Source: Cyanidioschyzon merolae (lineage: Eukaryota). Taken from it: a stretch of DNA of 64,000 bases. Positions 6,202-56,740 of this stretch are shown here, piece after piece. Position 1 is the stretch's first letter; every line of letters starts with the position of its first letter. Where the stretch lies: the NCBI GenBank assembly GCA_000091205.1, contig AP006488.2. One strand, 5' to 3'. A program made the translations under genes and the position numbers. A model generated the notes under the pieces. It was not told the origin of the DNA. It searched no databases and worked only from the letters and a program-made list of their open reading frames with translations.

Positions 6202-7638
6202 TCATACTGAAGCACTTGCTGAGGCATGCGTCAAGGTCGACACCGATACCGACGCACTTGGAGACGCAGTTGCAGTCGCAATAACGGCACTCGGAGACCG
6301 TGTAGCACTAAACACCACACACTGCCTGTTGATGCACTCCTCGCCAGAGCGGCAGCAACGCACCTTGTTCACAAGGTTGTCCGAAGGCATCAGGTAGGTC
6401 CCGGACTGAACTGTAGGGTCCTTGCATACACAGAATGACGGCAACGGCACCTGTCGCTGCTGCTGCTGCTGCTGCTGTTGCACGGTATTGCTGTTGCTGA
6501 ACGGGTTTGACGTGCAGTTCTCCATCTCGGCGTTGCAGCGCTCCGGGCCGCACGGAATATACGTCGAGTTCGATACGTTGCCGGTCGTGCTGTTCAGCGA
6601 GTTCGAGACGTACCCATACGCCTGACAAACATACTCGGTAACCGGCTGGGAGCACTCGTTGCCGGGCCCCAGGCAGCAACCAGCCTCCAGACACTGCTGC
6701 GGCGGGTAGCTCGTGCGCTGCGTCCCGTGCTGCTCTCCGTAAAGGACCGTGTTCAGCAGACGCACAAACTGGTTATTGTTGATGTTATTGTTCAGCTGCT
6801 GGTTCTGATTCACCGCGTTCGTGCACGGCTGGCGCTCAAACTCGCCCACCGCGCACGTCTTCTCGGGCTGGAAGCAGTACGGGTTCGACGCAAAGTCGCT
6901 CTGCTGCTTGCCGTTCTGCACCCACTGGTTCTGCGCCTGCGAGTCGTAGCAGCAGCCCTGGGCATAGCACGTAAACTGGTTGATACCCGCGTTGCCGCAC
7001 GGCTGGCGCTGCGCTCCCGGTGACGGGCAGACGGGTACTGGTGCCTGCACCTCCTGCAGCGCTACAGAGGCCTGCGGTGCATGGTTGATGTCGTAGTAGC
7101 ACCAGGGTGCCAGGATGCCGTTCGCTGTGGGCTGCCAGCAGCATCCCGGTATCGCAGTGCACTCGTCGGGGTAGATGTAGCTCCAGCCGCAGGTGACGCG
7201 CTGCGTCACTTCAACAGCGCTGCACGCCGCTGAGACGCTCTTCAGGGTGCACGCGTTCGTCTGGGAGTTGAAGCAGCACCCGACTTGCTCGTAAGCGTCC
7301 TGGTTGATGCACTGTCCTGGAGATCCGCAGAGCTCATTGGAGCAGATGGGGGTAGGCGTCCGCGAAGTTTTTGGTGTTGGAGTAGGGAATGCTTTCCTCA
7401 ATGCAAACACATCATTGAGAAAGTCACTGCCGCTCGTGTTTATGTATCCAATTCCAACAAATACGATCGGATCAGTTCTACTAGTGTCCCAGAAAGCTGA
7501 TCCATAGCGAGTACTTGGTACACTATTCGGGCCTGACTCGCTCAATGCCCCATATACTGCTGGAGTATTCACTACCGAGCTTCCATTAATCCATACCCGT
7601 TGACCCAGTTTGATATCGAATACCCACAGATCGTTCAA
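6202..7638 (-). CDS. N-terminally truncated paralog of the Kelch protein carrying tandem trefoil (P-type)-like cysteine-rich domains and a polyQ tract; gene fragment or exon
   Basis: The 478-aa ORF has no ATG start; the first in-frame codon is TTG, preceded by a stop. Its N-terminus (NDLWVFD ... TPTPKTSRTPTP) parallels the last Kelch blade and PT linker of the 3337..5520 protein. It then carries trefoil-type motifs, for example 'CSAVEVTQRVTCGWSYIYPDECTAIPGCCWQPTANGILAPWCYYD' and 'CPSPGAQRQPCGNAGINQFTCYAQGCCYD...NPYCF'. A polyQ run (QQQQQQQQRQ) is present, encoded by (CTG)n on the plus strand. Confidence 0.45.
   Translation of the reverse strand: MNDLWVFDIKLGQRVWINGSSVVNTPAVYGALSESGPNSVPSTRYGSAFWDTSRTDPIVFVGIGYINTSGSDFLNDVFALRKAFPTPTPKTSRTPTPICSNELCGSPGQCINQDAYEQVGCCFNSQTNACTLKSVSAACSAVEVTQRVTCGWSYIYPDECTAIPGCCWQPTANGILAPWCYYDINHAPQASVALQEVQAPVPVCPSPGAQRQPCGNAGINQFTCYAQGCCYDSQAQNQWVQNGKQQSDFASNPYCFQPEKTCAVGEFERQPCTNAVNQNQQLNNNINNNQFVRLLNTVLYGEQHGTQRTSYPPQQCLEAGCCLGPGNECSQPVTEYVCQAYGYVSNSLNSTTGNVSNSTYIPCGPERCNAEMENCTSNPFSNSNTVQQQQQQQQRQVPLPSFCVCKDPTVQSGTYLMPSDNLVNKVRCCRSGEECINRQCVVFSATRSPSAVIATATASPSASVSVSTLTHASASASV
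6455..6478. repeat. (CTG/CAG)n microsatellite inside the coding region (polyQ)
   Basis: 'gctgctgctgctgctgctgttg' read directly in the sequence. Confidence 0.8.
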
Positions 7639-8281
7639 ACGACTGCAAGTGCGCTTCTATTGCCGTACCCCTCAAAGCAAAATGAGTTACAGATTACCCA
7701 AATAAACACGCTCTGCCCTCTTCAACGACCTCAGTTAGCATTCTCTGGCGCATTCGATGCGAAGTAGGTCATAGCTTTAGCTATATTAATCACTACTGCA
7801 GTACGCTTTATGACTTGCGAAGCAATTTTGGTTCTCCACATCAGGAGGAGTGCCCACCCATCCGTTCAATATCCGATCGTGACTGTGGGATGCCATCTCA
7901 TCGGTACGCTGTTGCTCCCACATGCGTCTTTGAAGCAGCGGTCTGCGCTTTGAAGGCGCATCTCATTTTCATCACTAACAAACCTTAGACAGGGGCCAAG
8001 ATAGTCGACTTGAGGCCTCGCCGCCGCAACGCCTGGTCGATCAGATCAAGACTCAGTTTCTATTGCTGATCTGCCGTGTCGATTTCGTACGTTAGTTCAA
8101 TAACCTGCGGTTTCGTGTTCTCTCGACCTTCCGTATATTAGCCACGCCACTGATAATACGAGCCCGAGTCAGAGAACTGCCCCTGGGTCGCCACTTCGGC
8201 TACGCGGCGGTCAACCTCATCATTCGGAACGTACTGCCTAGTGATGTACTTCTGAACAAGCGGGAAGAATACGTAGCGGAA

Positions 8282-9196
8282 TCAGCCACGCTTTTCGCGG
8301 AAGAGGTTGCTTTCGGCGACACATCCCGGGAAAATCGCCACAGAGGTCACCCCGTCGCGGCCGTATCGATCACTGAGCGCCTTCATTGTCAACAAGTTCT
8401 CGGCTTTGGCGTCTTTGAAAGCTTTTGTGGGCTCAAACGGGCCACTTTCTACCATGTCCGTCGTCTGCGGATCAAGCCCCGCGGCTAGGCCAGATATATC
8501 CCCGAGACGAGCCTGCGGGGGGATCTTTCCCGGCAGCGAATTCGGCGAGTGGGTCTGAGTCGTCAGAAACACAATGTGCCTGCGCGATATTTTCATCTTC
8601 GGCAACAGCTCCCGACAGAGAAGCAAATGGCTCAGATGGCAAACCTGCATAGTTTCCTCGATGCCGTCCACCCTGAAACGCGGTTTCTTGTCCCGCGGAT
8701 GCCATATTGTGGCATTGCAGATCAGGGTATCCAGGTGATCGACGCGCGCCACACTTGACAGCTCTCTTACAAACTTCAACACAGAGGCGAAATCAGCCAT
8801 ATCACAATGCAGCACTGTATAGGCGTCCTTTGGAAGGTTTACGCTATTCGCTGCGCGTTCCGCCAGGTCGACGTCACGACTTGCCATGACGATGTGCCCG
8901 TTGCCCTTGTTGATCAGAGCGCGAGCTGCATACAGACCGACCCCAGAGGACGCGCCAGTGATCACGGCGATCTGCGACTGTTTCGGGCCCATACGAAGAT
9001 GCAGCGCGTGGTGCCGGCGCGCTACAGGCGAGCGCTGCACCGCCAAGGGAAGCGGATGCTGACAGTGGTGACAATGTCCAGCTGCGAAGCACCCATCACG
9101 TGCGGTACGTAGCGGGAACGGTGCTCGAGTTGCAGCGCGCGCGCGAACAATGTGTCTTTCCTGGTACAACGGGACAAAAACGAAAAGAGCTTGCAT
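8282..9196 (-). CDS. Light-dependent protochlorophyllide oxidoreductase (POR)-like short-chain dehydrogenase whose catalytic Tyr is replaced by Phe
   Basis: The ORF encodes 304 aa. It has the SDR Rossmann motif 'ITGASSGVG'. Blocks align closely to LPOR: 'YTVLHCDMADFASV', 'LICNATIWHPRDKKPRFRVDGIEETMQVCHLSHLLL', and the POR-specific loop 'GKIPPQARLGDISGLAAGLDPQ...'. The tail 'LLTMKALSDRYGRDGVTSVAIFPGCVAESNLFREK' also matches. The YxxxK motif reads 'FKDAK' where POR has 'YKDSK'. A 68-aa N-terminal extension may be a targeting peptide, or the start is the internal 'MGPKQSQ'. Confidence 0.7.
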   Translation of the reverse strand: MQALFVFVPLYQERHIVRARAATRAPFPLRTARDGCFAAGHCHHCQHPLPLAVQRSPVARRHHALHLRMGPKQSQIAVITGASSGVGLYAARALINKGNGHIVMASRDVDLAERAANSVNLPKDAYTVLHCDMADFASVLKFVRELSSVARVDHLDTLICNATIWHPRDKKPRFRVDGIEETMQVCHLSHLLLCRELLPKMKISRRHIVFLTTQTHSPNSLPGKIPPQARLGDISGLAAGLDPQTTDMVESGPFEPTKAFKDAKAENLLTMKALSDRYGRDGVTSVAIFPGCVAESNLFREKRG

Positions 9197-9579
9197 TTTC
9201 TTGGATTAGATTTCCTCTGGTGCAAAGCTGCTGAACGCGCCACCAACTAGAGACGTTCGCTCAAGCATGCGTATCCAGTCAAAAACCTCTTTTGCGTAGC
9301 TGCAAGAGTGATCGCCCGTCAATGGTCCAGAGTCTGACCCATATCTCCCGTAGACTGCATAGCGTTGAGCACATCTAGCACAAGTGCTCAATGTCTTTCT
9401 GAGAAACTAGGCAAAACTCCTATGCTTCCCATCAACAACCTCATCAGCAGTTAGTGCCAAGGGTTCCGCAGTGCTGCGCTCAGATATCTAAACGACCGTT
9501 CACGAACGTCGACGTGGCTCTCCGACGAATACCGTAGAGGAGGTATAAGGGAATATCCTCCGGTGGTATGTTATTTTGG

Positions 9580-9685
9580 AAGCGTCTGCACGTCAGTTGG
9601 AGACGTCATGTTTAGGGCGGGTCACTCGCCACTACCGTGCACCGCGGGCAGCAGCGTTTTTCTTTTCAAAAGCATTTTTTGTCGG
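9580..9685 (+). mobile_element. Solo 3'-terminal fragment of the Fanzor/TnpB-like element family (conserved right-end module only)
   Basis: 'cgtctgcacgtcagttggagacgtcatgtttagggcgggtcactcgccactaccgtgcaccgcggg...gcgtttttcttttcaaaagc' matches the conserved 3' ends of the copies at 13140, 22060, 28270 and 32620. No upstream ORF is present. Confidence 0.5.
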
Positions 9686-10665
9686 CTGTGTCTCTTCCGG
9701 GCTCGATGTATGGGTTAGTCTCCTGAAACTAATCTTATAGAGTAGATCAGAATTCAGTATGCTTTTTTTGGCGGGTTCCTCGATCGTTCCAGGTGAGATG
9801 CGTTGGTCAAGCGCTGTGCTACGTATGAACGCTCTATGTATGCTATGCCTCTACCAAGATCACAGGATCCGGGAGAGTAGCGGGCACCATAACTTGGACA
9901 ACGACGATAGCATGGAAATGACTTGAACTGCCATCAGTTCCAGAACATGACGCAGGATAGAAGCACAATTCAGGTCAGTTCCTTATTCCAGCGTCCGTGC
10001 CGCATGCATAACAAGCACCGGGATTAAACGTATATCCGTGTTCAGCAATCCTACCGTGCCTTGTTTGTTTACGATCAATACAACTAACGAAACTCTTCAA
10101 GGCTAGAGTGATGCGTACCTTATCCACACAAGTGTAAGCCGCAGAGAACGCTACGCTTTTGATAGAAGCATCACGGGGTATCTCGCCAGGCCCCAACATC
10201 CCCTTGTACGTCAGGTCGGTACGGCGATGGGCGGTAGCGTCAGCACCACCGCCAGAGCCTATGCCAAGAGATCATTCTACGTGAGTTTCCAATCTACGAT
10301 ACTTTATTCCAGCTGCAGTGCGGTGCGAATACGCATATGCCAAGGCGGTGTCGGACACGTGTCCTTCATGGATCGGTGCAGCGTCTCGCGCGGTGCACGC
10401 ATCGCGCTCAGGGAGCACGCCTCGGAGATCAGGTAGTCAACTGACACGACGCGCATGCCGCCGTTGAAGGGAAACGCGATCCTAGTAACGAGCGTGTTGT
10501 TCTAACAGAAAAAGTTGGATTTCCGTTGGAGTCGAAGCAAAGTACAATTTTTCAGTTCATTTTTGTTTCAGCCCTCAAACAAGTCTAGTCAAGTGCTTTC
10601 TTGCAATACATAATAGAAGGGTTCGAAGCTGGTTCTTTTTCAAAAATACCTAAAAAAGAGGAGCT

Positions 10666-13166
10666 ATGAAAAAGCAAGTCCACGATCCTGAAGCGCCATT
10701 GTCGCCGGCTGCCAGAAAAACAAATACAGTGCCGAGTCCCGACGAAGAGCAAAAGAAAAAGAAGCAAAGGGGGAGGCCCTATGTCGATCGCGGCAAGAAA
10801 GACGACTGTACGACGAGATAGTGTTGAACGCCTGACTTCTTAAACATATCAAGGATCCCTACAGGGAAAAGTTGCGAGACGCTATCGAAAACCGTGTCGA
10901 CTCGTACTCCAAGAGTCTTTTCAAGGCTTCGTCAGGACTGATGCATTTGGCGAGGGAGATGTATCGCGACGTGACGGACATGGCAACCATCGAGATTCCG
11001 GACGAGTTCTTCGACAAGACCTTTATTCGTCACCTGATGCATGGTACAGCGGGAACGTGGAGGGAAAACGTGCTAGTGCATGTTCTCCACGAAAACTTCG
11101 CGGAATTCCGCTTCGAGGGTGCTCGGTACAGCGGTGACTCGCATATTTACACATACGGGGCAATGAAGTTCATCACGAACCTGAAGAACCATTTGACAGA
11201 GAACCTCGAATGTTTCATGATACGCACCGCGTTTGCACTCTACCCGGGCATCTCTCGCAAGGGGATATGGTCGATTATCAATGGCATCACGAACGATCGC
11301 AAGCATGAAGGTGAGGTCGAATTCGTCGGCAAGAAGACGTCAAAAGGGAGCACGAATGAAGCTTCTGCAACCCGTGCGGCTATACAAGAGCACCGTGCAG
11401 TCTTGGGGCTGGTGAATCCAACAGACAAGATATCAAAGTTGGAGAAAGATAAGGAAAGATACTATCGCCTCTTCCTGCGGCATTTTGTGTTTCTGGACCG
11501 AGAGCTCGAACGCAAAGTGGAGATGAAGCTGAGTGAAGAGACAAATGAAGAGTGGGAAAGACGGAAGGCTTTCCTAATGGGGAAGCGCTTCGACGTGGTT
11601 CCGTTGTGCAACATCAAGGCACATTTTGTGACTATCGACTCCGCGGTCCTTTACGGCATCATAAAGGAGATCAGTGCGGAGTTCAATATTCGTAGGGAGC
11701 ACTTCACCGGCGAAAACCAGGAGACGTACTGGAAGAAGATCTTCGGTTTCAAACGTCTCAAAACGAGCAAGCAAAAGGTATTCGCTGGGATGATTGAAAC
11801 CGATGGAGTAAACGTGTGTGTACACTATCGGCGGCTGAAGCAAGATCGTCCAGTCCCACTCCCCGCTGCGCCCTCGATGAAGCATGAAGATGAGAATGAG
11901 TCGGATCCTGCCACGCAGGAGGTAGAGGATACTGATCTTGTCGTTGGCGTGACGAACGATGAAGATGAGCAGGAGGCTGGTCCTGCGACGCAGGAGGTGG
12001 AGGATAACGAGCTTGCCGTTGACGCAGCGGAGCATGAAGAAAACCAAGAGGCGGGTCCTGCGACGCAGGCGGCGGAGGATAACGACTTTATCGTTGACGT
12101 GACGAAGGATGATCATGGGAAGGAAGCGGATCCTGTGATGCAGGAGGTGCATGATGACGCCTTTATGGTTGGCGCGGCGAAGCATGAAGAAAACAAGAAG
12201 GTGGGCCCTGCGACCCAGAAAGTGCAGGATAAGGACTTTGTCGTTGGCGCGGACCCTCGGAATACGAATATCATTACCATCGCAGCACCGAAGCGTGCGG
12301 AAGATGGTACTGATGGTAACTTACGTCAGAAAGACATGCGTCTTTTGAGGTTCACGAGAGAGAGATACTATCGAGAATCGGGAATCATGAATGCGAGGAA
12401 ACAATTCGAGACTTGGAAGTCAGGAATGAAAGATCACCTGGAAGCTTCGAGCTAGGTGACGAGCCGAGGAGCGCACTTTGAAGCTTTTCGGAAAGTCATG
12501 GAAGGTCGCATGACGCACTGGGATACGCTGTGGAAGGAGTATACCAAGCCCCGGTGGGCTCGTTTCCGAATGAATTTGTATTGTGGGAAGCAGCGGGCGG
12601 TGGCGAATTTTTTCAATCAGTTGAATGCCTTGATGGACGATAACAGTCAGAGGCTCGTAGTAGCGTATGGGGCAGGGCGCTGGAACACTCAAAAAGGAAC
12701 TTCGCCAGCTCCAACGACGAGGGTGTACAAGGAGTGCGCACGTCGTTTCGTTACAATACGGGTAGACGAGTTCCGAACGTCCTATACTCACCATGAGCTG
12801 GGTTGTACACTTCAGAGGGTGAAGATGGAAAAGTACCAGAAGAGCCCTGAGGAAATAGCAAAGTACGGACCGCTGACGGAAGAGCAAATGGAAAGGAGGG
12901 CGAAAGTTCGTGGACTACTCGCATTAGTAAGTACAACCAGTGATGGCAAGAAACGGATGGATTTCGTGAACCGAGAGTTTAATGCCGCAATCAATATAAG
13001 GAGATTGGCGGTGCTAGAGAAAAGACCTCCAGAGTGGACAAGAGAGAACTTTATTGGACAATCACTCAAAGTCGATTTATATGAGAAAGAATTGGAATCA
13101 GTAGTAGGTGACCGGTCCAAAAAGGCGGCGAGGCGTCTCCACGTCAGTTGGGGACGTTTTGTCTAG
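10666..13166 (+). pseudogene. TnpB/Fanzor-like nuclease ORF of copy 1, disrupted: frameshift and TGA near the N-terminus and an in-frame TAG at 12453..12455
   Basis: Two adjacent ORFs (10872..12455 and 12456..13166) lie in the same frame and are separated only by a TAG. The sibling copy has GAG at that position. The N-terminal exon-like ATG at 10666 is out of frame with the main ORF, and a TGA lies in the continuing frame. The RuvC-III 'NAAINI' motif is intact. Confidence 0.6.
11898..12257 (+). repeat. In-frame tandem array (5 x about 69-72 bp) duplicating the acidic '[14 protein letters not shown]' segment that ends in the RuvC-I motif
   Basis: The protein repeats are '[25 protein letters not shown]', '[25 protein letters not shown]', '[25 protein letters not shown]', '[26 protein letters not shown]' and '[19 protein letters not shown]'. 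Copies 3 and 5 carry a single unit. Confidence 0.7.
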
Positions 13167-14246
13167 GGCGCGGTTTTCCCGCCACTACTGTACACCGTTG
13201 GCGTCGTTCGACTTTCGAGCGGCGTTTGGTGTGGCCGTGCGCGGGAAGACGTCCATCATTCCATCTCCTTCCGAGTCTCAAAGCCCATGCTTCTTCTCGG
13301 ATATACTGGTCGTTTCGTATACTCTATCGAGTGACCGTGCATGCCTTGCCGCATCCGCTCCAGTAGTTTAAACGCTTGTGCGGGGTGTACAAAGTAGGTA
13401 TGGCGCACGATACAACGTACGCAACGACCAGCATATCAGAGAGGAATCACGAGGAATGCAACGATAAGGCAGGATGCATCACGATAGACGCTTTCCCGAA
13501 AGACAATATCCATCTACCCCGCAATCTGGGATCCATGGTCCATGGAAACGTGCTGCTACTGGAAAGAAAAACGAACGGGTGTGCGCGGCTGCCGTCTGTT
13601 CAACGTAGTTTCGTATTTCGTTCTTTTCTAGGTGGTGTAACGGAACTGTCTGCGGAAAATGACAGAGGAGTCCGCGGTGGAAGCTCGGCGTGTATCCTGC
13701 GAGGATTCCGAGCCCGAGGGATCGCCTTCGGCAGCCGCGCGGTCAGAGCAGGATACCGAGACGCCCGTCAGCACGAACGCCACAGGCACGCGACTCAACT
13801 GGAACACGCAGGCACCTGCAGTGACGAACGACGGCTGGCAAACAGCAGCGAGCGTATGCTCTAGTTCCGGTTCTGCGCTTGGTGAAGCGTTCACTCCAGA
13901 CGCTGCGCCTTCGCACGTAGGTACTGGAGCCGCAGCTCGTAGTGTTATGGCGACTGCCTCGGTTGAGAACAGTGTTCACTCCTTATCTGAGTCACCAATA
14001 AGCTGGAAAACACGCTTGAATGACCTTTAGGAGCGTCTCCTTCCCTGGATTCCCGAGCGAATGGCTTCCTTTTTCTACCGTCAGGCAACGCGCTGGCTGC
14101 CGACTCTCGTGCAGCGACTTCGATCAGCCTACGCCAAATCGCTTGAACCCATGGACGCTGTCGTTCATCTCTACAGGGGCATTGTTCCGACTTTTGATCA
14201 TCTTCCCGCAGAGGGCCGGGCGCCAACACAGATTCTCGCCGACCTG

Positions 14247-21172: not shown

Positions 21173-22165
21173 TTGTCGTTGGCGCGGACCCGGAAACTCA
21201 AATATCGTTACCGTCGCAGTACCCAAGCGTGTGGCAGATGGTACTAACGGCACCTTACATCAGACAGACATGTGTCTTTTGAGGTTCTCGAGAGCAAGAT
21301 ACGATCGAGAATCCGGTATGATCAATGCAAGGAAGAAAATTGAGACATGGAATGCAGGAATGAAGGATCACCTGCAAGCTTTGAGCGAGGTGAGGAGCCG
21401 AGGAGCGGACTTTACAGATTTTCGGGAATTCATGGAAGTTCGCGTTGCTCATTGGGACGCGCTGTGGGAGGATTATACAAAGCCCAGGTGGGCTCGTTTG
21501 CGAATGAATCTGTACTGTGGGAAGCAGCGGGCGTTCGCCAACTTTTTCAATCAGGTGGGCGCCCTCAAGGAGATTGAAAGTCAGAGGCTCGTCGTAGCGT
21601 ACGGAGCAACGCGCTGGAAGACCCAAAAACGGGACTATGCCAGCTCCAACGACAAGAACGTACAAGGAGTGTGCACGGCGTTTCGCTGCGATACCTGCAG
21701 ATGAGTTTCGAACATCGTATACACACCACGAGCTGGGATTTACACTTCAGAGAGTCGAGATGGAAACGTGCCAACGAAGCCATGAGGAAATAGCAAACTA
21801 CGGACCGCTGATGGGAGAGCAAATGGATAAGAGAGCGAAAGTTCGTGGACTACTTGCGCTGGTGAGCGCAACCAAAGATGACAAGAAACGTATGGTATTA
21901 GTGAACCGAGACTTTAACGCCGCTACGAATGTAAAGAGATGTACGGTGACAGATAGAAGACCTCCAGAGTCGACAAGAGAGAACTTTGTTAGACAATCAC
22001 TCAAAGTGGAACTATATGAGAAACAGTTGGAAGCAGTTGTAGGTGACCGGTCCAAAAGGCTGGGAGGCGTCTGCACGTCAGCTGGGGATTTCTTGTCTAG
22101 GGCGGGCTTCTCGCCACTACTGTACACCGCTGGCGACAACGTTTTGCTTTTGAAAGGCGTTTTGT
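21173..22165 (+). mobile_element. Fanzor/TnpB-like element copy 2 (family A; 5'-truncated, begins at the RuvC-I 'VVGADP' segment; frameshifted)
   Basis: Homology begins at 'gttgtcgttggcgcggaccc'. ORFs 21141..21704 and 21637..22353 lie in different frames, with the same +1 insertion as copies 3 and 4. The 'VNRDFNAATNVKR' RuvC-III-like motif and the conserved 3' end are present. Confidence 0.7.
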
Positions 22166-22194
22166 TTCAGGGGTTTTTGCAGTATACAGACACT

Positions 22195-25929: not shown

Positions 25930-28350
25930 ACGTGTTGTTCTACCGGAAAAAGTTGTATTCGCGTTGGAGTCGAAGCAAAGTACAATTTTTCAGTTCATTT
26001 GTGTTTCAGCCCTCAAACATGTCTAGTCGAGTGTTTTCTTGCAATATATAATAGAAGGATTCGAAGCTGGTTCTTTTTCAAAAAAAATAAAAAAAGGAAA
26101 GTCATAGGAAAGCAAGTCGGCGATCCTGGAGGCCCAGGATCGCCGGCTGCCAGAAAAACAAATACAGTGCCGAGTCCGGACGAACAGCAAAAGAAAAAGA
26201 AGCAAAATGTGAGGCCCTACGTCGAAGGCTGCAAGAACGACAACTGTACAACGAGATAGTGGTGAAAACCTCTCTTCTTGGACATATCAAGGATCCCTAT
26301 AGGGAAAAGTTGCGAGGCGCTATCGAAAACCGTGTCGACTCGTAACCCAAGAGTTTTGTCAAGGCGTCTTCCGGACTGATGCATTTGGCGAGGGAGATGT
26401 ACAAATACGTGACGCACATGGAAACGGTCGACATTCCGGACGAGTTCTTCGACAAGACGTCTTTTCGATACCTGATGCATGGTACAGCGGAAACGTGGAG
26501 GGAAAATGTGCTAGTGCATGCTCTTTACGAAAAATTCGTGGAATTCCGATTCGAGGGTGCTTGGTACAGGGGTGACTCGCATATTTACACATACGGGGCA
26601 ATGAAGTTCATCACGAACCTGAAGAACCATTTGACAGAGAACCTCGAATGTTTCATGATACGCACCGCGTTTGCACTCAACCCGGGCATCTCTCGCAAGG
26701 GGATATGGTCGATTATCAATGGCATCACGAAAGATCGCCAGCATGAAGATGACGTCGAATTTGTCGACAAGAAGACGTCAAAAGGGAGCACGAATGAGGC
26801 TTCTGTAACCCGTGCGGCTATACAAGAGCACCGTGCAGTCTTGAGGCTGGTGAATCCAACAGACAAGATATCAAAGTTGGAAAAAGATAAGGAAAGATAC
26901 TATCGCCTCTTCCTGCGGTATTTTGTGTTTCTGGACCGAGAGCTCGAACGCAAAGCGGAGATGAAGCTGAGTGAGGAAAAATGAAGAATGGGAAAGACGG
27001 AAGGCTTTCCTAATGGGGAAGCGCTTGGACGTGGTTCCGTTGTGCAACATCAAGTCACATTTTGTGACTATCGACTCCAGATCCCTCACGACATCACGAA
27101 GGAGATCAGTGCGGAGTTCAATATTAGTCGCGAGGACTTCACCGGCGAAAACCAGGAGACGTACTGGAAGAAAATCTTCGGTTTCAAACGTCTCAAAACG
27201 AGCAAGCAAAAGGTATTCGCTGGGATGATTGAAACCAATGGAGTAGCCGTGTGTGTACACTATCGGCGGTTGAAGAAAGATCGTCGAGTCCCACCCCCCG
27301 CTGCGCCCTCGACGAAGCATGAAGATGAGAATGAGTCGGATCCCGCCACGCAGGAGGTGGAGGATACTGATCTTGTCGTTGGCGCGGACCCCGGACACAT
27401 CATTATCATCAACATCGCAGCACGGAAGCGTGTGGCAGATGGTACTAACGGCACCTTACATCAGACAGACATATGTCTTTTGAGGTTCTCGAGAGCAAGA
27501 TACGATCGAGAATCCGGTATGATCAATGCAAGGAAGAAAATTGAGACATGGAATGCAGGAATGAAGGATCACCTGCAAGCTTTGAGCGAGGTGAGGAGCC
27601 GAAGAGCGGACTTTACAGCTTTTCGGAATTTCATGGAAGTTCGCGTTGCTCATTGGGACGCGCTGTGGGAGGATTATACAAAGCCCAGGTGGGCTCGTTT
27701 GCGAATGAATCTATACTGTGGGAAGCAGCGGGCGTTCGCCAACTTTTTCAATCAGGTGGGCGCCCTCAAGGAGATTGAAAGTCAGAGGCTCGTCATAGCG
27801 TACGGAGCAACGCGCTGGAAGACCCAAAAACGGGACTATGCCAGCTCCAACGACAAGAACGTACAAGGAGTGTGCACGGCGTTTCGCTGCGATACCTGCA
27901 GATGAGTTTCGAACATCGTATACACACCACGAGCTGGGATTTACACTTCAGAGAGTCGAGATGGAAACGTGCCAACGAAGCCATGAGGAAATAGCAAACT
28001 ACGGACCGCTGATGGGAGAGCAAATGGATAAGAGAGCGAAAGTTCGTGGACTACTTGCGCTGGTGAGCGCAACCAGTGATGGCAAGAAACGTATGGTATT
28101 AGTGAACCGAGACTTTAACGCCGCTACCAATGTAAAGAGATGGACGGTGACAGAAAGAAGACCTCCAGAGTCGACAAGAGAGAACTTTGTTAGACAATCA
28201 CTCAAAGTGGAACTATATGAGAAACAGTTGGAAGCAGTTGTAGGTGACCGGTCCGAAAAGGCTGGGAGGCGTCTGCACGTCAGGTGGAGACGTCGTGTCT
28301 AGGGCGTGTTTGCCACTACTGTACACCGCTGGCCGCAGCATTTTTCTTTT
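25930..28350 (+). mobile_element. Fanzor/TnpB-like element copy 3 (full-length mosaic: family-B-like 5' half plus family-A 3' half; multiple frameshifts)
   Basis: The 5' end is 'cgtgttgttctaccggaaaaagttg', followed by a TATA 'tatataatag' and then the MHLAREMY... N-terminal half, about 90% identical to copy 1. The RuvC half is near-identical to copies 2 and 4 ('[32 protein letters not shown]...'). ORFs 26379..26984, 26988..27905 and 27838..28302 lie in three frames. Confidence 0.7.
26045..26054 (+). promoter_or_regulatory. TATA-box-like sequence (TATATAATAG) upstream of the element-internal ATG
   Basis: Read directly in the sequence. The equivalent position in copy 1 reads 'cataatag', about 50 bp before 'atgaaaaag'. 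Confidence 0.3.
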
Positions 28351-29242
28351 GAATGGCGTTTATTTTTTAGGCGACGACCACAAGCCTGTTCCCTAGTCAT
28401 CGGTCGTACGCGCGACTCCTCGGAAGTTTGGCTATAATCAGCGCGCCCCTCTAGCAAAACAGTCGAGTCGGCACCAGATGCGCCCGAGAGGCCCCGCGCC
28501 GACCTTCAACCTATTCTCGCTAACCAAAAGTTGAATACCTGCTCTGCAGCTGTTCGATCAGCTACCTCGACAGAGTAGAGGTCGATAAGCGCTCTTTCAC
28601 GATGAACTACCAGGTCATGCGCAAGTCACGCACCCTACGCTTTCGTGCTATCCGCAAAACCTGCTATCTTCCAAGCGTAGCGGCTTGCGGACCATCAAGG
28701 CAACTATGCGCTGAAATTCCGCCTCTTGTACCGTTGAACAACTTCCCTGAATGCTTCGCGCCATCGAGAAGCATATTCATGTATCGTGCGCCTGCAAGAA
28801 GCGGTTCCAACACTTCATACCGACTCAGTGGGTCCTCGACCGCAATCAAGTTCAGATTTCCGGACACAGCGTCCGCCTACGCATGAAAAACGGCCTCCAA
28901 GTCTGTTGTCGCGTGCTGTTTTTGAGGCAATGAGGAACCGCGGATGCATTGCTCGTCCACTGAGCAGTCGCGTGCGCCAGTATCGAGGACGCGTGCCGTT
29001 CTCGCAGCAAAAGAACCAGTCTGTCGGAGCGTCTCCTACTATTCCACGATACTCCAGCGGAAAAAGAGCGACTCTTCGCCCCTGTCGACGAATTGGCGCC
29101 CCGGGCGACGCTTTACGCACTTCGAGCGCTCCATGAGAGCAACCGTGAATCCCAACTGTCCCAGTTTACGATCATCGCTGGCACGGTTCAAACCGCAGTG
29201 CCCCGCCAGTTAGCAAGTTATGTCGTGAGATATTCGGAGGAA

Positions 29243-31642
29243 CTAGCGCCCCGTGCTGTGCTGCTCCAGCAGTGCTCTGCGTGCATTCTCGAGGAGTATC
29301 TTCTGCTCAACGCTTGCGATCTGTTTCCGCGTACTGATCACAGCATCAGGGTTGACACTCACGCTGTCAATGCCACAGCGAACTAAAAACTCGGTTAAAT
29401 CCGGATATACTGAAGGAGCCTGCCCGCAGATACTCACAGTGATATTGGCACGGTGGGCTTCCTCGATGAGGATGCGCATCGCGGCCTTGACTGCCGGATC
29501 GCGCTCATCAAAGTATCCCAAAGTGGCAAGCTTCGGGGAATCTCGATCCGCGCCCAGCAACAGCTGCGTTAGGTCGTTGCTACCGATACTAAATCCATCA
29601 CAGAGCTGAGCAAAATCGCGCGCGAGCAGAACAACGCTGGGAACCTCCGCCATGAGCAGAACTTTGAAGTCGGAAGCGCGCTGCAGTCCTTCAGAGCGCA
29701 TCAAGTCAAGCGCACGCTGCACCTCCCAGGTCGTTCGTGCAAATGGTAACATGGCCCAGACATTTTTCAAACCCTGCTCATCCCGAACCTGCTTCATCGC
29801 TCGGCATTCGAGGCGAAACCCGGCCTCGTACTCAGCGCTGACATAGCGCGAGACGCCCCGCCAGCCGAGCATCGGATTAGATTCAAGGATCTCGTACCGT
29901 TCGCCGCCTTTCAGGGAGCGGTATTCGTTGGTCTTGAAATCACTAAATCGGACAATGACTGGCCTCGGATAGGCAGCTTGTGCGACCATGGAAATACCTT
30001 CCGCGAGCTTCTCCACGAGCATTTCTTCCTCCTTGTTCTCGATAATGTACATGGGATGGTGTCCAACCCAGCTGGCAAGGATGAACTCGACCCGCATGAG
30101 CCCAATGCCGTCAAATGGCAGGTGACGTAGATCCTGCATTTTCTCTGGTTCACCGAGGTTCATGTAGACGCGAGTAGCCGTGATCGGCAATACCATCGAC
30201 GCGACTGCGTCAGCGGATATCCCTGCCTTGGGCGGTGTGTCCTCCTCGGCTTTGTGTACTCCGCGCAGTATGACACCCAGCGTTCCGTCCACCGTCACGA
30301 TCTGGCCGCTTCGAAGAATCTCGGTTGCTTTGCCGGTGCCAACCACACATGGTAAGCCAAGTTCACGCGAGACAATCGCGGCATGCGCAGTCATTCCGCC
30401 ACTGTCGGTGACGATGGCCGCCGCCTTTCTCATCGCTGGCACCCAGTCCGGCGTTGTCATTGATGTGACAAGCACTTCACCTGGTTGGAACTCCGATATG
30501 TTCTGGACATCAAGAAGGACTCGCACTTTCCCGTGTGCGCGCCCTGGCGATGCTCCGAGGCCACGTACCAAAACCTCGCGACGCGAGGCTGCTTTCCTGT
30601 CTGACCAGACTGTTTCGGGACGCGCTTGAAGCACATAGAGCTGGTTCTTTTCCTCATCTATGGCCCATTCAATGTCCATTGGTATTCCGTAATGCTTTTC
30701 TATGGTGAGTGCAGTTCGTAGGAGCTCCTGTATCTGTGCATCGGTGAGACACGGAGCCTCCACCAGGTCCGCTGGTACGGGTACCTCACGGGTCAGCGTG
30801 TCAGCGGATGCTGCGTCGATGCCCTGGACGCCGTCAGCGACTGCGGCTCGCACCATCATCAGCGGCTTTGAGGCAGTGTGGCGCTCGAGCACACGCCCGC
30901 TTGCCTTTTCGACCACGAAACGATCCGGTCGAACCCTGCCCTGAACGACCATCTCGCCGAGTCCCCAGCAGCACTCAATAACGATCAGATCACGCTTGCC
31001 GGTAACCGGATCCAGGGTGAAACAAACCCCCGAGACACGGCTCTGAACCATTTGCATCACACCCACACTCAGGCGCATATCCAGGTGCGGGTAGCCTTTC
31101 TCCTCCCGATATGCAATGGCGCGAGGCGAGAACAACGAGCCGTAGCATTTCTTGATATACTGGAGGATCGCATCGATGCCGTGCACGCACAGATACGTCT
31201 CTTGCTGGCCAGCAAAACTTGCCTCTGCAGAGTCCTCCGCAGTTGCGCTGCTGCGAACTGCAACCAGTGGCTCTTGCGCCCCAAGGGTTTTCACCAAGTT
31301 GCGGTACGCACTTCGAATCATCTGCTCTACGGGCGGTGGGTATGCAGCATCCTCCAACAACGCCATTATTGCCTTTGAGGCTTCCTCCAGCGAGCTGGGC
31401 GACTCTAAGTTCAGACCTTGAAGAATGGACTGAATTTTCGTGTCCAGCTTATTGAATTCGATAAAGGACTCGTACGCGGCGACCGTCACAGCGAAGCCTC
31501 GCGGGACCAAGAGCCCGAGACTCAGCAGCTCACCCAGGCTGGCGTTCTTCCCCCCAACTAAGCCTCTGTCTGTATTCCTCAAATTCTGTAGCTCCACAAC
31601 GTACTTCCCAGCGTCGTTTTCCTCGCAGTTTGTGAGCACCAT
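29243..31642 (-). CDS. ppsA: Phosphoenolpyruvate synthase (pyruvate, water dikinase), bacterial PpsA-type
   Basis: The ORF is intact over about 799 aa from M at 31642. The 852-aa track ORF starts further upstream, inside element copy 4. Blocks align to PpsA: 'DRGLVGGKNASLGELL', 'VAVRSSATAEDSAEASFAGQQETYL', 'GLGEMVVQGRVRPDRFVVEK' and 'KHYGIPMDIEWAIDEEKNQLYVLQARPETVWS'. The phospho-His motif is 'GGMTAHAAIVSRELGLPCVVG'. The C-terminal PEP-utilising domain includes 'IGSNDLTQ'. Confidence 0.85.
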   Translation of the reverse strand: MVLTNCEENDAGKYVVELQNLRNTDRGLVGGKNASLGELLSLGLLVPRGFAVTVAAYESFIEFNKLDTKIQSILQGLNLESPSSLEEASKAIMALLEDAAYPPPVEQMIRSAYRNLVKTLGAQEPLVAVRSSATAEDSAEASFAGQQETYLCVHGIDAILQYIKKCYGSLFSPRAIAYREEKGYPHLDMRLSVGVMQMVQSRVSGVCFTLDPVTGKRDLIVIECCWGLGEMVVQGRVRPDRFVVEKASGRVLERHTASKPLMMVRAAVADGVQGIDAASADTLTREVPVPADLVEAPCLTDAQIQELLRTALTIEKHYGIPMDIEWAIDEEKNQLYVLQARPETVWSDRKAASRREVLVRGLGASPGRAHGKVRVLLDVQNISEFQPGEVLVTSMTTPDWVPAMRKAAAIVTDSGGMTAHAAIVSRELGLPCVVGTGKATEILRSGQIVTVDGTLGVILRGVHKAEEDTPPKAGISADAVASMVLPITATRVYMNLGEPEKMQDLRHLPFDGIGLMRVEFILASWVGHHPMYIIENKEEEMLVEKLAEGISMVAQAAYPRPVIVRFSDFKTNEYRSLKGGERYEILESNPMLGWRGVSRYVSAEYEAGFRLECRAMKQVRDEQGLKNVWAMLPFARTTWEVQRALDLMRSEGLQRASDFKVLLMAEVPSVVLLARDFAQLCDGFSIGSNDLTQLLLGADRDSPKLATLGYFDERDPAVKAAMRILIEEAHRANITVSICGQAPSVYPDLTEFLVRCGIDSVSVNPDAVISTRKQIASVEQKILLENARRALLEQHSTGR

Positions 31643-31726
31643 TAGGTTGGCCGAATTCCAGGTCGTTTGACAGACTCCAGAAACAGAAAGAATTGAGATT
31701 GTAATCTCCGGACGTGAACGTGCTGC

Positions 31727-32707
31727 TGGCGGCCGACCCCAGAAACACAATTTCATAACCATCGCAGCACGGAAGCGTGTGGCAGATGGTACTAACGGCA
31801 CCTTACATCAGACAGACATGTGTCTTTTGAGGTTCTCGAGAGCAAGATACGATCGAGAATCCGGTATGATCAATGCAAGGAAGAAAATTGAGACATGGAA
31901 TGCAGGAATGAAGGATCACCTGCAAGCTTTGAGCGAGGTGAGGAGCCGAGGAGCGGACTTTACAGCTTTTCGGGAATTCATGGAAGTTCGCGTTGCTCAT
32001 TGGGACGCGCTGTGGGAGGATTATACAAAGCCCAGGTGGGCTCGTTTGCGAATGAATCTGTACTGTGGGAAGCAGCGGGCGTTCGCCAACTTTTTCAATC
32101 AGGTGGGCGCCCTCAAGGAGATTGAAAGTCAGAGGCTCGTCGTAGCGTACGGAGCAACGCGCTGGAAGACCCAAAAACGGGACTATGCCAGCTCCAACGA
32201 CAAGAACGTACAAGGAGTGTGCACGGCGTTTCGCTGCGATACCTGCAGATGAGTTTCGAACATCGTATACACACCACGAGCTGGGATTTACACTTCAGAG
32301 AGTCGAGATGGAAACGTGCCAACGAAGCCATGAGGAAATAGCAAACTACGGACCGCTGATGGGAGAGCAAATGGATAAGAGAGCGAAAGTTCGTGGACTA
32401 CTTGCGCTGGTGAGCGCAACCAGTGATGGCAAGAAACGTATGGTATTAGGGAACCGAGACTTTAACGCCGCTACCAATGTAAAGAGATGTACGGTGACAG
32501 AAAGAAGACCTCCAGAGTCGACAAGAGAGAACTTTGTTAGACAATCACTCAAAGTGGAACTATATGAGAAACAGTTGGAAGCAGTTGTAGGTGACCGGTC
32601 CGAAAAGGCTGGGAGGCGTCTGCACGTCAGGTGGAGACGTCGTGTCTAGGGCGTGTTTGCCACTACTGTACACCGCTGGCCGCAGCATTTTTCTTTTGAG
32701 TGGCGCT
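31727..32707 (+). mobile_element. Fanzor/TnpB-like element copy 4 (family A; 5'-truncated at the same point as copy 2; same frameshift)
   Basis: Homology starts at 'gctggcggccgacccc...catcgcagcacggaagcgtgtggcagatgg'. ORFs 31779..32252 and 32185..32649 are more than 98% identical to the copy 2 and copy 3 peptides. The conserved 3' end is '...gtctagggcgtgtttgccactactgtacaccgctggccgcagcatttttcttttgag'. Confidence 0.7.
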
Positions 32708-54269: not shown

Positions 54270-56740
54270 TGTTTCTCTATCGTACAAGATGTGTTTCGGT
54301 TGAAGCCATAGCAAATTATCGTCTTTCGATTCAGCTGTGCTCCAGCCCTAGCATTAGCGTTTTCAAGTGCTTTTTCGTGGTTTATAGCAGAAGCGTTCGT
54401 AGCGGGTTCGTTTTCAAAAATAAAAAAAGAAAAGCCATGGGGAAGGAAATGGAGGATCCGGTAGGCTCGGCGCCGCCGATCGCCGAAAACAAAAACTAAA
54501 AACACTGCCAAGCCCAGAGGATCAAGACAAGGCGAATATGAAGAAATGGGAGGCTCGACCTCAAAAGCGACACAAAAGGCGACAGTACGACGAGAATGTA
54601 GTGAAAGCATTTCTTCTACTCAAGACCAAGAATCCCTACAAGCAGGAGTTGCGAAAGGCCATCAGAAACCGTGTCGCGTCGTACTCCATCAGTATCATTA
54701 AGGCTTCTTCAGGACTGATGCATAAGGTGAGCGAGACGTATCGCGACATCACGGACAGCAGAACAGTCGAGGTTCCGGGAGAATTCTTCAGCGAGGCCTT
54801 CATCAAGCACCTGCTACGTGGCACAGGGGAAACTTCGAGGAGAAATGAGCGAGTGTATGCCCTCCAGGAAAATTATATCGTCTAACGCTTGAACGGTACG
54901 ATATAAAGGTGAGCTCGAATTTTTACATCTACGGGGCGGTGAAGTACACCACGAATCTGAAGAAACATTTGAGCATGAACCTAAAACGCTTCACGAAACG
55001 CTGCATCATATTTAAATCTACGGGGCGATGAAGTACACCACGAATATGAGGAACCATTTGACCATGAACCTCAAACGCATCATGAAACGCTCCATCTTTG
55101 CGCTGTACCCGGACCTCTCACACAAAGGGAAATGGGCCACCATGAGTAGCATCACGAACGATCGACAGCATGAACAGGAGATCGAATTCGCCGGTGAGGA
55201 GGCATCGCCCAGTACCATGAATGAAGCTCCTGTGGTCCGTGCGGCTGTCCAAGAGCACCGCGGAGGTCTGGGGCTGGCCAATCCAGAAGAAAAGGTATCA
55301 GAGATGGAAAAAGATGCTATCCCCTGAACCTGCGGTATTTCGTGTTTTTGGAACGAAGAACTCGAACGCAAGGCGCATATGGATCTGGGCATGGAGGTAT
55401 GTTGAGAGTCTTTGAAACGGATGGCTGGGCTTCTGGAGAAGCGCTTCAACGTCGTTCCGTTATGAAAGATCATGTCGTACTGTGTCACAATCGATTCCAG
55501 AGTCCTTCATGGCATCATGAGGAAGATTTGTTCGTAGTTCGATTCAGGCAGGGAGAGGTTCACCGGCGAAACCGGGAGACTTGTCGGAAGAATATCTTTG
55601 ATTTCAAATGTCTTAAAAGGAGCACAAAAAATGTATTCAGGGGTACGATTGGGAGCGATGGACTACCCATACGTTTGCACTATCGGCGCTTGATGGCGGA
55701 TCGTACGACGCAGGAGGTGCAGAAGAACGACTTTGTCGTTGACGTGGATTCTGCGAAATCGAATGTCAAGACCACCGCAGCACCCAAGTGTGCGCAAGAT
55801 GGTATCGACGGCAACTTATGCCAGAAAGGCATGTGTCTTATAACGTTCGCGAGAGCGAGACACTAACGAGAATCAGGAATCATGAACATGAGGAAAAAAA
55901 GTGAGACTTCGAATACAGATGTGAAGAAGCACCTGGAAGTGATCAGCCAGGCCACTTGCCATGGAGCGGACTTGCAAGCCTCTGTAGCGTTCATGAAAAT
56001 TCGAGCTGCTCATAACGAGTTGCTGTGGGAAAAGTACTCAATGACCCGGCGAGTTCGCCAGCGTCTCAACCTGCACTACGGAAAGCAGCACGCACTTGCC
56101 AATTTCCTCCATGAGGTGAGCGCCCTCACGGAGTACATGAGTCTAAGCCTCCTAGCAGCATACGTAGCATGGCGCTTGGCCTTCCAAAAAAGGGATCATA
56201 CGCTCTCCATCGACGAGAGCGTACCAGGCGTGCGCACAGCGCGTTGTCACAATACCGATGGATGAGTTCCGAACGTCATGAATACAGCATGAGCTGGGAA
56301 GTACACTTCAGAGGGTCAAGACGGAATAGTGCCAGCGGAGCCCTGAGGATATTGAAAAAGCATGGAGCGCCGACAGAACAGGAAATGGCACGGAGGGCAA
56401 AAGTTCGAGGAATCCTTGCATTAGTGAGTGCAAGCGACAGCAAGAAACTGATGGAGTTTGCGAACCGGGACTTTAACGCCGCTATCAATATCAGACGATG
56501 TGCCGTGCCTGAGACGAGCGCCGAAGAGCTGAGACGATCCAACTTCATGGGCAGCCCCTCAAGGCGGATTTGTCGAAGAAGAAGTCGAAACCGATAGTAG
56601 GTGGCCGGTCGCAATAAGCCGGGAGGCGTCTGCACGTGGGCGGCCAGACATATGGTCTATGGCGAGCGGAGCCTAGCGCGCTGCTCGCCACCACCGTACA
56701 CCGCGTGCAAACCTGCGCCGCTCGCAAGGCGTTCGTTGTT
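54270..56740 (+). mobile_element. Fanzor/TnpB-like element copy 5 (divergent family C; several frameshifts and stops)
   Basis: The 5' end 'agcgtgtttctcta...' and the N-terminal region 'MKKWEARPQKRHKRRQYDENVVKAFLLLKTKNPYKQELRKAIRNRVASYS...SSGLMH' are colinear with copies 1 and 3. The segment 'FVVDVDSAKSN' occupies the RuvC-I-like position. 'FANRDFNAAINIRRCA' is RuvC-III. The related 3' end is '...cgtctgcacgtggg...gccaccaccgtacaccgcg'. Confidence 0.55.
54927..55100 (+). repeat. Internal tandem duplication (2 x about 88 bp) within element copy 5
   Basis: 'atctacggggcggtgaagtacaccacgaatctgaagaaacatttgagcatgaacctaaaacgcttcacgaaacgc...' is repeated immediately as 'atctacggggcgatgaagtacaccacgaatatgaggaaccatttgaccatgaacctcaaacgcatcatgaaacgc...'. 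Confidence 0.5.

Follow-up and report, generated by a model that had tools for sequence, protein, structure and literature searches.

At its left end, chromosome 6 of Cyanidioschyzon merolae strain 10D carries a broken copy of the nuclear gene for light-dependent protochlorophyllide oxidoreductase (LPOR, or POR). The copy, at positions 7985-9196 of the 64,000-nucleotide stretch of DNA analysed here (hereafter, the window), is very probably a non-functional duplicate, that is, a pseudogene of the LPOR gene residing in the subtelomeric PH element of this chromosome end (6L). Its catalytic tyrosine codon has become a phenylalanine codon and its reading frame is interrupted by three stops; two intact paralogs exist in the same genome. 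The kind of relic and its place were already known, and the new details are only the catalogue of its lesions and a Phe haplotype shared with other copies.

The LPOR-like reading frame is the front part of a full-length relic

The initial annotation described the open reading frame (ORF) at 8282-9196 as an LPOR-like protein that includes the LPOR-specific loop, and this description holds. The ORF matches the LPOR model TIGR01289 with an E value of 3.7e-64 and 217 bits over model positions 2-233 of 315, below the curated equivalog cutoff of 331 bits, and it also matches Pfam families of the SDR type. Alignments with solved plant and cyanobacterial LPORs gave E values from 1e-65 to 1e-54; the top structure matches were Arabidopsis PORB and cyanobacterial LPORs, and the specific loop was aligned to that of PORB (PDB 7jk9/9tl6). 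From a plausible ATG, the ORF encodes a transit-peptide-like N-terminus of red-algal type, followed by ~235 residues from the start of the mature LPOR domain. The NADPH-binding GxxxGxG motif (as GASSGVG), the PGC cysteine (FPGCVAES) and Lys264 are all retained.

The ORF is closed by a nonsense mutation, the first of three. Beyond this TGA, POR homology stays in frame for another 99 codons, until it reaches the normal stop at 7985-7987, and the truncation is therefore secondary. The ORF represents the first three quarters of the relic and lies 8-9 kb from the left telomere. A tblastn alignment of the intact 403-residue protein P0002 extends from 9196 to 7988 with 90.6% identity and no gaps. Overall, the relic shows ~91% amino acid identity to the intact Cyanidioschyzon gene, from which it differs by ~6% at the DNA level, and 45-47% identity to cyanobacterial LPOR. 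No uninterrupted ORF, such as a functional LPOR would have, passes through the C-terminal ~100 residues.

The Phe codon and the three stops are all single-base changes relative to the intact copies (Table 1). The YxxxK motif of the relic reads FKDAK, in which the Lys is kept; the column of Phe260 is Tyr in 103 of 103 LPORs (100%), and in the alignments the Phe stands opposite the catalytic Tyr. The Tyr-to-Phe replacement reported in the initial annotation is thus real, but the report was incomplete in that both the truncation of the ORF and the chromosome end were missed. An exact look-up of the 304-residue product returned no record, and the accessions BAM79404 and BAM79405 have no protein between them; as a protein, the 6L copy is therefore unannotated.

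Table 1. Features of the POR relic and its surroundings in the window.
Feature	Position	Strand	Basis or remark
Telomere repeat (AATGGGGGG)n, CCCCATT... on the plus strand	1-27	minus	Repeat unit according to PMC1955436
Kelch + Hint gene, 'similar to hedgehog protein', BAM79404.1	3337-5520	minus	Pfam; exact 10D protein match
Trefoil-domain ORF with only the last kelch blade	6202-7638	minus	
POR repeat unit: gene, ~300 bp upstream and ~260 bp downstream	7725-9499	minus	
Full-length LPOR relic (very probable pseudogene), 403 codons and original stop	7985-9196	minus	tblastn of P0002; translation through stops; PDB LPOR alignment
In-frame TAG, codon 379 (TAC, Tyr, in intact copies)	8060-8062	minus	
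In-frame TAA, codon 353 (AAA, Lys, in intact copies)	8138-8140	minus	
LPOR-like ORF, 304 aa	8282-9196	minus	ORF list; ORF of the initial annotation
In-frame TGA, codon 305 (TGG, Trp, in intact copies)	8282-8284	minus	
Codon 260, TTC (Phe) for the catalytic Tyr (TAC in intact copies)	8417-8419	minus	LPOR alignment; copy comparison
Fanzor1/TnpB-like interspersed repeat, ~2.7 kb, ORF with in-frame stop	10493-13230	plus	Adjoins the POR unit

The relic belongs to the PH element at 6L

The window opens with CCCCATTCCCCCCATT..., the reverse complement of the AATGGGGGG telomere repeat, which marks the left end of chromosome 6. Each of the ten window ORFs tested (10/10) corresponds exactly to a C. merolae 10D protein of this 536,163-bp chromosome, from CMF014C to CMF026C. 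Inward from the telomere follow the kelch+hint gene, the trefoil ORF, the POR relic and a ~2.7-kb repeat. Eight types of subtelomeric element have been described in C. merolae (Nozaki et al., 2007; BMC Biol 5:28, PMC1955436). The commonest type is PH, where P stands for NADPH:protochlorophyllide oxidoreductase and H for a hedgehog protein, and PH elements are located at 6L, 7R, 8L, 8R, 11L, 14R, 18R and 19R (Figure 3 of that paper). Given the telomere repeat, the H gene and the POR sequence at 6L together with this published list, the relic is the P of the 6L PH element. Telomere repeat, kelch+hint gene and POR stand in this order at 6L and constitute the published element; the present analysis adds a catalogue of the lesions, the haplotype around Phe and statistics on decay. 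The word 'pseudogene' is absent from the text of the 2007 paper as searched.

Cho et al. (2023; Nat Commun 14:10, PMC9812998) single out kelch, trefoil and hedgehog genes as the sole duplicated subtelomeric family common to the Cyanidiales. In the trefoil ORF, for which there is no protein record, the N-terminus can be aligned with the adjoining kelch+hint protein at the last kelch blade only. This ORF is a 5'-truncated kelch-trefoil relic, cut near the boundary of the POR unit (~7725). It and the copies of a Fanzor element with in-frame stops bear out the earlier remark that other lesion-bearing paralogs lie near the POR copy.

The limits of the POR unit recur in other copies, the 9499 boundary in L004, L009, L017, L021 and L035 and the 7725-7735 boundary in L004, L010, L016, L018, L020, L024 and L025 (L numbers denote loci from the metagenome scan below). 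The recurrent boundaries raised the possibility of a processed (retroposed) pseudogene. This was rejected: no A-run is present at the 3' boundary of the POR unit and no poly(A) trace was found, and much longer flanks are common to many copies.

In most related loci, the Fanzor1/TnpB-like repeat flanks the POR copy on the same side as in the window. The window contains five copies or fragments of it, namely that listed in Table 1 and those at 21173-22171, 25931-28371, 31727-32705 and, in diverged form, 54586-56635. The repeat ORF shows TnpB/Fanzor-like motifs and an in-frame stop. The repeat fits what has been published (~3 kb, hundreds of copies ~80% alike) on the Fanzor1 element CMe-1A (Bao and Jurka, 2013; PMC3627910) and on the '253-copy WSV486-like element' (Nozaki et al., 2007); the repeat ORFs had no match in Pfam, and the identity comes from motif reading and this literature. 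Two copies of the repeat flank a gene for PEP synthase (pyruvate, water dikinase) at 29243-31801 on the minus strand. The closest named relatives of this protein outside the immediate clade are from Cyanidium caldarium (66%) and from Marsarchaeota/Thermoprotei archaea (~63%), and the gene looks like a horizontal transfer from archaea. Rfam and tRNA scans of the window found nothing.

Intact paralogs are present in the same genome

Canonical YxxxK copies, for which the initial annotation had suggested a genome search, do exist. C. merolae 10D has two intact PORs of 403 residues, BAM81403.1 and BAM79708.1 (P0002 cluster), and both contain YKDAK. The former is encoded on a chromosome of 852,727 bp and the latter on one of 584,452 bp, and both chromosomes carry PH elements at their right ends. 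To judge from chromosome sizes and the order of accessions, these two proteins would be the 7R and 14R copies. The accession that follows the chromosome 14 POR, BAM81404.1, is again a hedgehog-like protein. With intact Tyr copies in the same genome, the relic can therefore be regarded as an ordinary pseudogene within a published repeat.

The protein search returned relatives of two groups. The first contains intact proteins of ~400 residues, all with YKDAK or YKDSK, namely P0002, P0006 (Cyanidiococcus yangmingshanensis), P0008, P0010 (Cyanidium caldarium), P0013 and P0014 (the red alga Agarophyton); P0006 and P0010 were named by cluster look-ups. The second consists of truncated or frameshifted close relatives. 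Among the relatives from this search, FKDAK was seen only in P0001, which is the relic locus in other samples, and in the fragment P0011.

Two further records deserve comment. A 107.8-kb contig from a Rio Tinto acid mat (ENA ERZ1300892, NODE_33; locus L006) was deposited among 'cyanobacteria-related contigs'. Its DNA is eukaryotic with a GC content of 66%, its POR falls into one cluster (≥90% identity) with Cyanidium caldarium KAK4535147.1, and the organism given for the contig appears to be wrong. P0254 (485 aa, JGI) joins POR residues 1-304 to an unrelated Lys/Glu-rich C-terminal tail, with the junction at precisely the codon that is TGA in the window; the record represents an assembly chimera or else a rearranged copy.

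The relic has evolved under relaxed constraint

Comparison of the intact P0002 gene with Cyanidiococcus-type genes gave a dN/dS of ~0.02-0.03, with synonymous sites saturated. We counted the changes of each lineage in the mature region against the inferred ancestor of the clade. The intact lineage (L003) has 18 synonymous changes, 2 nonsynonymous changes and no stop, and the window lineage has 21 synonymous changes, 27 nonsynonymous changes and 3 stops (Fisher p=1.7e-4). The ratio of nonsynonymous to synonymous changes in the window lineage is more than 10-fold above that of the intact lineage, and purifying selection of the kind seen in the intact lineage was not detected in the window copy. 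Other relics resemble the window copy in these counts. The N/S ratio of the window lineage, ~1.4, is below the ~3 expected under fully neutral change, which we attribute to youth or selection on part of the branch, to exchange with other (intact) copies, or to bias of the crude counting. The 403 codons of the relic contain no indels, which is unusual for an old pseudogene; since DNA divergence is only ~6%, the indel-free frame is compatible with a young relic.

The replacements also fall on positions that LPORs conserve. W100G, C106S, A163T, R207H, D250E, Y260F and G329D affect columns invariant in the 103 LPORs, and L133M and A157T affect columns that are 98% conserved. The invariant W100 and C106, both lost, lie near the retained NADPH motif and PGC cysteine. 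Besides Y260F, about 8-9 replacements in the window copy are at invariant or near-invariant LPOR positions. With nine invariant or 98% conserved LPOR residues replaced, Phe260 is therefore one lesion among many.

Related copies form a family of relics in metagenomes

A scan of metagenomes identified 42 POR loci, largely from the Yellowstone hot-spring sample Ga0078972 (provenance in PMC8986864). These 42 loci comprise at least 10 relic lineages with distinct sets of lesions, including stops, indels of 1-2 nt and lost start codons. The TTC codon and the TGA, TAA and TAG of the window copy all recur in the assemblies L001, L002 and L023. L001 and L002 are the same locus in independent assemblies, 98.8% identical over 3.8 kb (window 6909-10720). 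Because the Phe codon and the three stops recur in independent assemblies, sequencing error does not account for them.

On long contigs (up to 176 kb), the POR copies are located at the contig end or no more than ~8 kb from it and point outward; no telomere repeats were seen at the metagenome contig ends. We infer from end position and orientation that these copies are subtelomeric. The 76,260-bp contig Ga0080006_1178247 (L030/L031) has a POR relic at each end, in inverted arrangement, each broken inside the gene. An upstream repeat is common to many POR copies and downstream trefoil/kelch genes to some; in L015, L027, L034 and L056, homology extends into both the upstream Fanzor repeat and the downstream trefoil/kelch genes. 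The pattern of these loci agrees with a duplication of blocks from one chromosome end to another. JGI gene calls P0001, P0241-P0247 and others are truncated relic ORFs that bear the label 'protochlorophyllide reductase'.

The Phe codon is found only in broken copies

Among the metagenome copies, TTC at codon 260 occurs in four lesion classes. The first is the window type (L001, L002 and L023). The second, L015, L027 and L041, has stops at codons 321 (beyond the coverage of L041), 354 and 359, and the third, L033, has a TGA at codon 277 and frameshifts. In the fourth, L056/L057, the ATG is lost, codon 55 carries a 1-nt deletion and Met69 is replaced by Ile, with the mature domain open. Every Phe-bearing copy found carries disabling lesions, and none of the metagenome copies has Phe in a complete, translatable gene. 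L056/L057 (Ga0504774_000198 and Ga0504777_000262) is the least decayed Phe copy seen and retains the normal stop; its block is collinear with window 13206-4618 (87%).

In a neighbour-joining tree, the Phe copies are not monophyletic (2 of 200 bootstraps), which suggested recurrent Tyr-to-Phe mutation. This possibility is disfavoured by linked variation: all Phe copies have a silent T at nt 777 beside the T at nt 779 and share a local haplotype around it. The TAA at codon 353 is also present in the Tyr-bearing relics L007, L016 and L018, and the haplotypes of the copies are mosaic. In the simplest reading of these sequences, Phe would have arisen once, in a relic, and then spread among relics by gene conversion or recombination, because the linked silent change and the haplotype are common to all Phe copies.

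Discussion

An intact paralog in the genome, lesions that are found again in independent sequence, and duplicated flanks all argue that the 6L copy is a pseudogene; it is presumably neither expressed nor functional. We propose that ectopic recombination copies subtelomeric blocks, each consisting of Fanzor repeat, POR, kelch/trefoil genes, kelch/hint gene and telomere, from one chromosome end to another. Two of the copies in strain 10D would stay intact and supply LPOR, and the remaining ones, that at 6L included, would be free of selection and gather point mutations. The change of Tyr260 to Phe (TAC to TTC) probably had its single origin in a relic and was passed on to other relics through gene conversion or recombination. 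Later, the copy at 6L would have acquired, or received by exchange, the changes TGG to TGA, AAA to TAA and TAC to TAG together with further damaging replacements.

The initial annotation left three readings side by side. Of these, the decaying duplicate agrees with the stops, the relaxed constraint and the broken state of all Phe relatives, and the pseudo-enzyme and the binding protein are not supported. A functional, diverged POR paralog of either kind, acting as a pseudo-enzyme or as a pigment- or NADPH-binding protein, in which Tyr-to-Phe was adaptive and the 304-residue product is used, is in our view highly improbable. The ATG, the transit peptide, GASSGVG, Lys264 and the PGC cysteine kept by the copy would suit such a protein, as would the occurrence of Phe in several copies, but the product lacks the C-terminal 99 residues and the homology past the stop marks the truncation as secondary. 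The losses at invariant W100, C106, A163, R207, D250 and G329, the more than 10-fold rise in the nonsynonymous to synonymous ratio over the intact lineage and the missing protein annotation in the reference genome weigh against it as well. Moreover, the disabling lesions differ among the Phe copies, so Phe is tied to no conserved ORF. The site-directed Y193F mutant of LPOR (PDB 6r46, T. elongatus) has the same change at the same active-site position and was stable enough for crystals, which speaks for such a paralog; that change, however, was engineered in an otherwise intact enzyme, whereas the broken gene of the relic has many lesions besides the Phe. With its open mature domain, L056/L057 may for a short time have been expressed as a Phe variant.

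A related idea, to which we attach very little weight, is that Phe260 marks a once-expressed dominant-negative or pigment-binding variant that circulates by gene conversion, with the subtelomeres serving as a reservoir that could switch the intact 7R and 14R LPOR genes on or off. A plastid-encoded dark-operative POR could cover the protochlorophyllide reduction step, and if it does, such switching would be tolerable.

It is similarly improbable that the copy is a relic that is transcribed without coding and acts in regulation or structure, whether as a gene-conversion donor or acceptor that modulates the intact 7R/14R POR genes, by giving rise to antisense or small RNA, or within subtelomeric chromatin. 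The mosaic haplotypes do show sequence exchange among copies, and H3K27me3 is enriched at cyanidialean subtelomeres (Cho et al., 2023); the decay patterns, however, are explained without any function. That the stops and the Phe codon are artefacts of sequencing or assembly, or reflect a non-standard code or programmed read-through, is scarcely credible: although all four lesions are single-base changes in an otherwise perfect frame, the same TTC, TGA, TAA and TAG occur in L001, L002 and L023, intact paralogs have TGG, AAA and TAC at the lesion sites, other copies have frameshifts and different stops, finished sequence of the 10D chromosomes runs from telomere to telomere and includes their ends (Nozaki et al., 2007), and stop-codon reassignment is rejected because the neighbouring genes use the standard code, under which ten neighbouring ORFs give the exact annotated proteins.

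Like LPOR (EC 1.3.1.33, TIGR01289), the relic is homologous over all 403 codons and keeps the loop, GxxxGxG, the Lys and the PGC cysteine; unlike LPOR, it has Phe for Tyr, three stops, more losses at invariant sites, relaxed constraint and a score below the family cutoff. The subtelomeric duplications of Cho et al. (2023) involve the same kelch/trefoil/hint neighbourhood and the same copying between chromosome ends. In that work the stress is on amplified functional, adaptive genes, whereas here the passenger is a housekeeping plastid enzyme and most of its copies are dead.

The relic thus removes a false lead, for it is not a natural 'Y193F' LPOR, and most of the other POR copies found are relics that exchange sequence with one another. 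Since metagenome gene callers name truncated relic ORFs as the enzyme, the apparent diversity of LPOR is inflated. The POR copies of C. merolae 10D, a completely sequenced model alga, provide a compact example of how genes arise, undergo conversion and die at chromosome ends.
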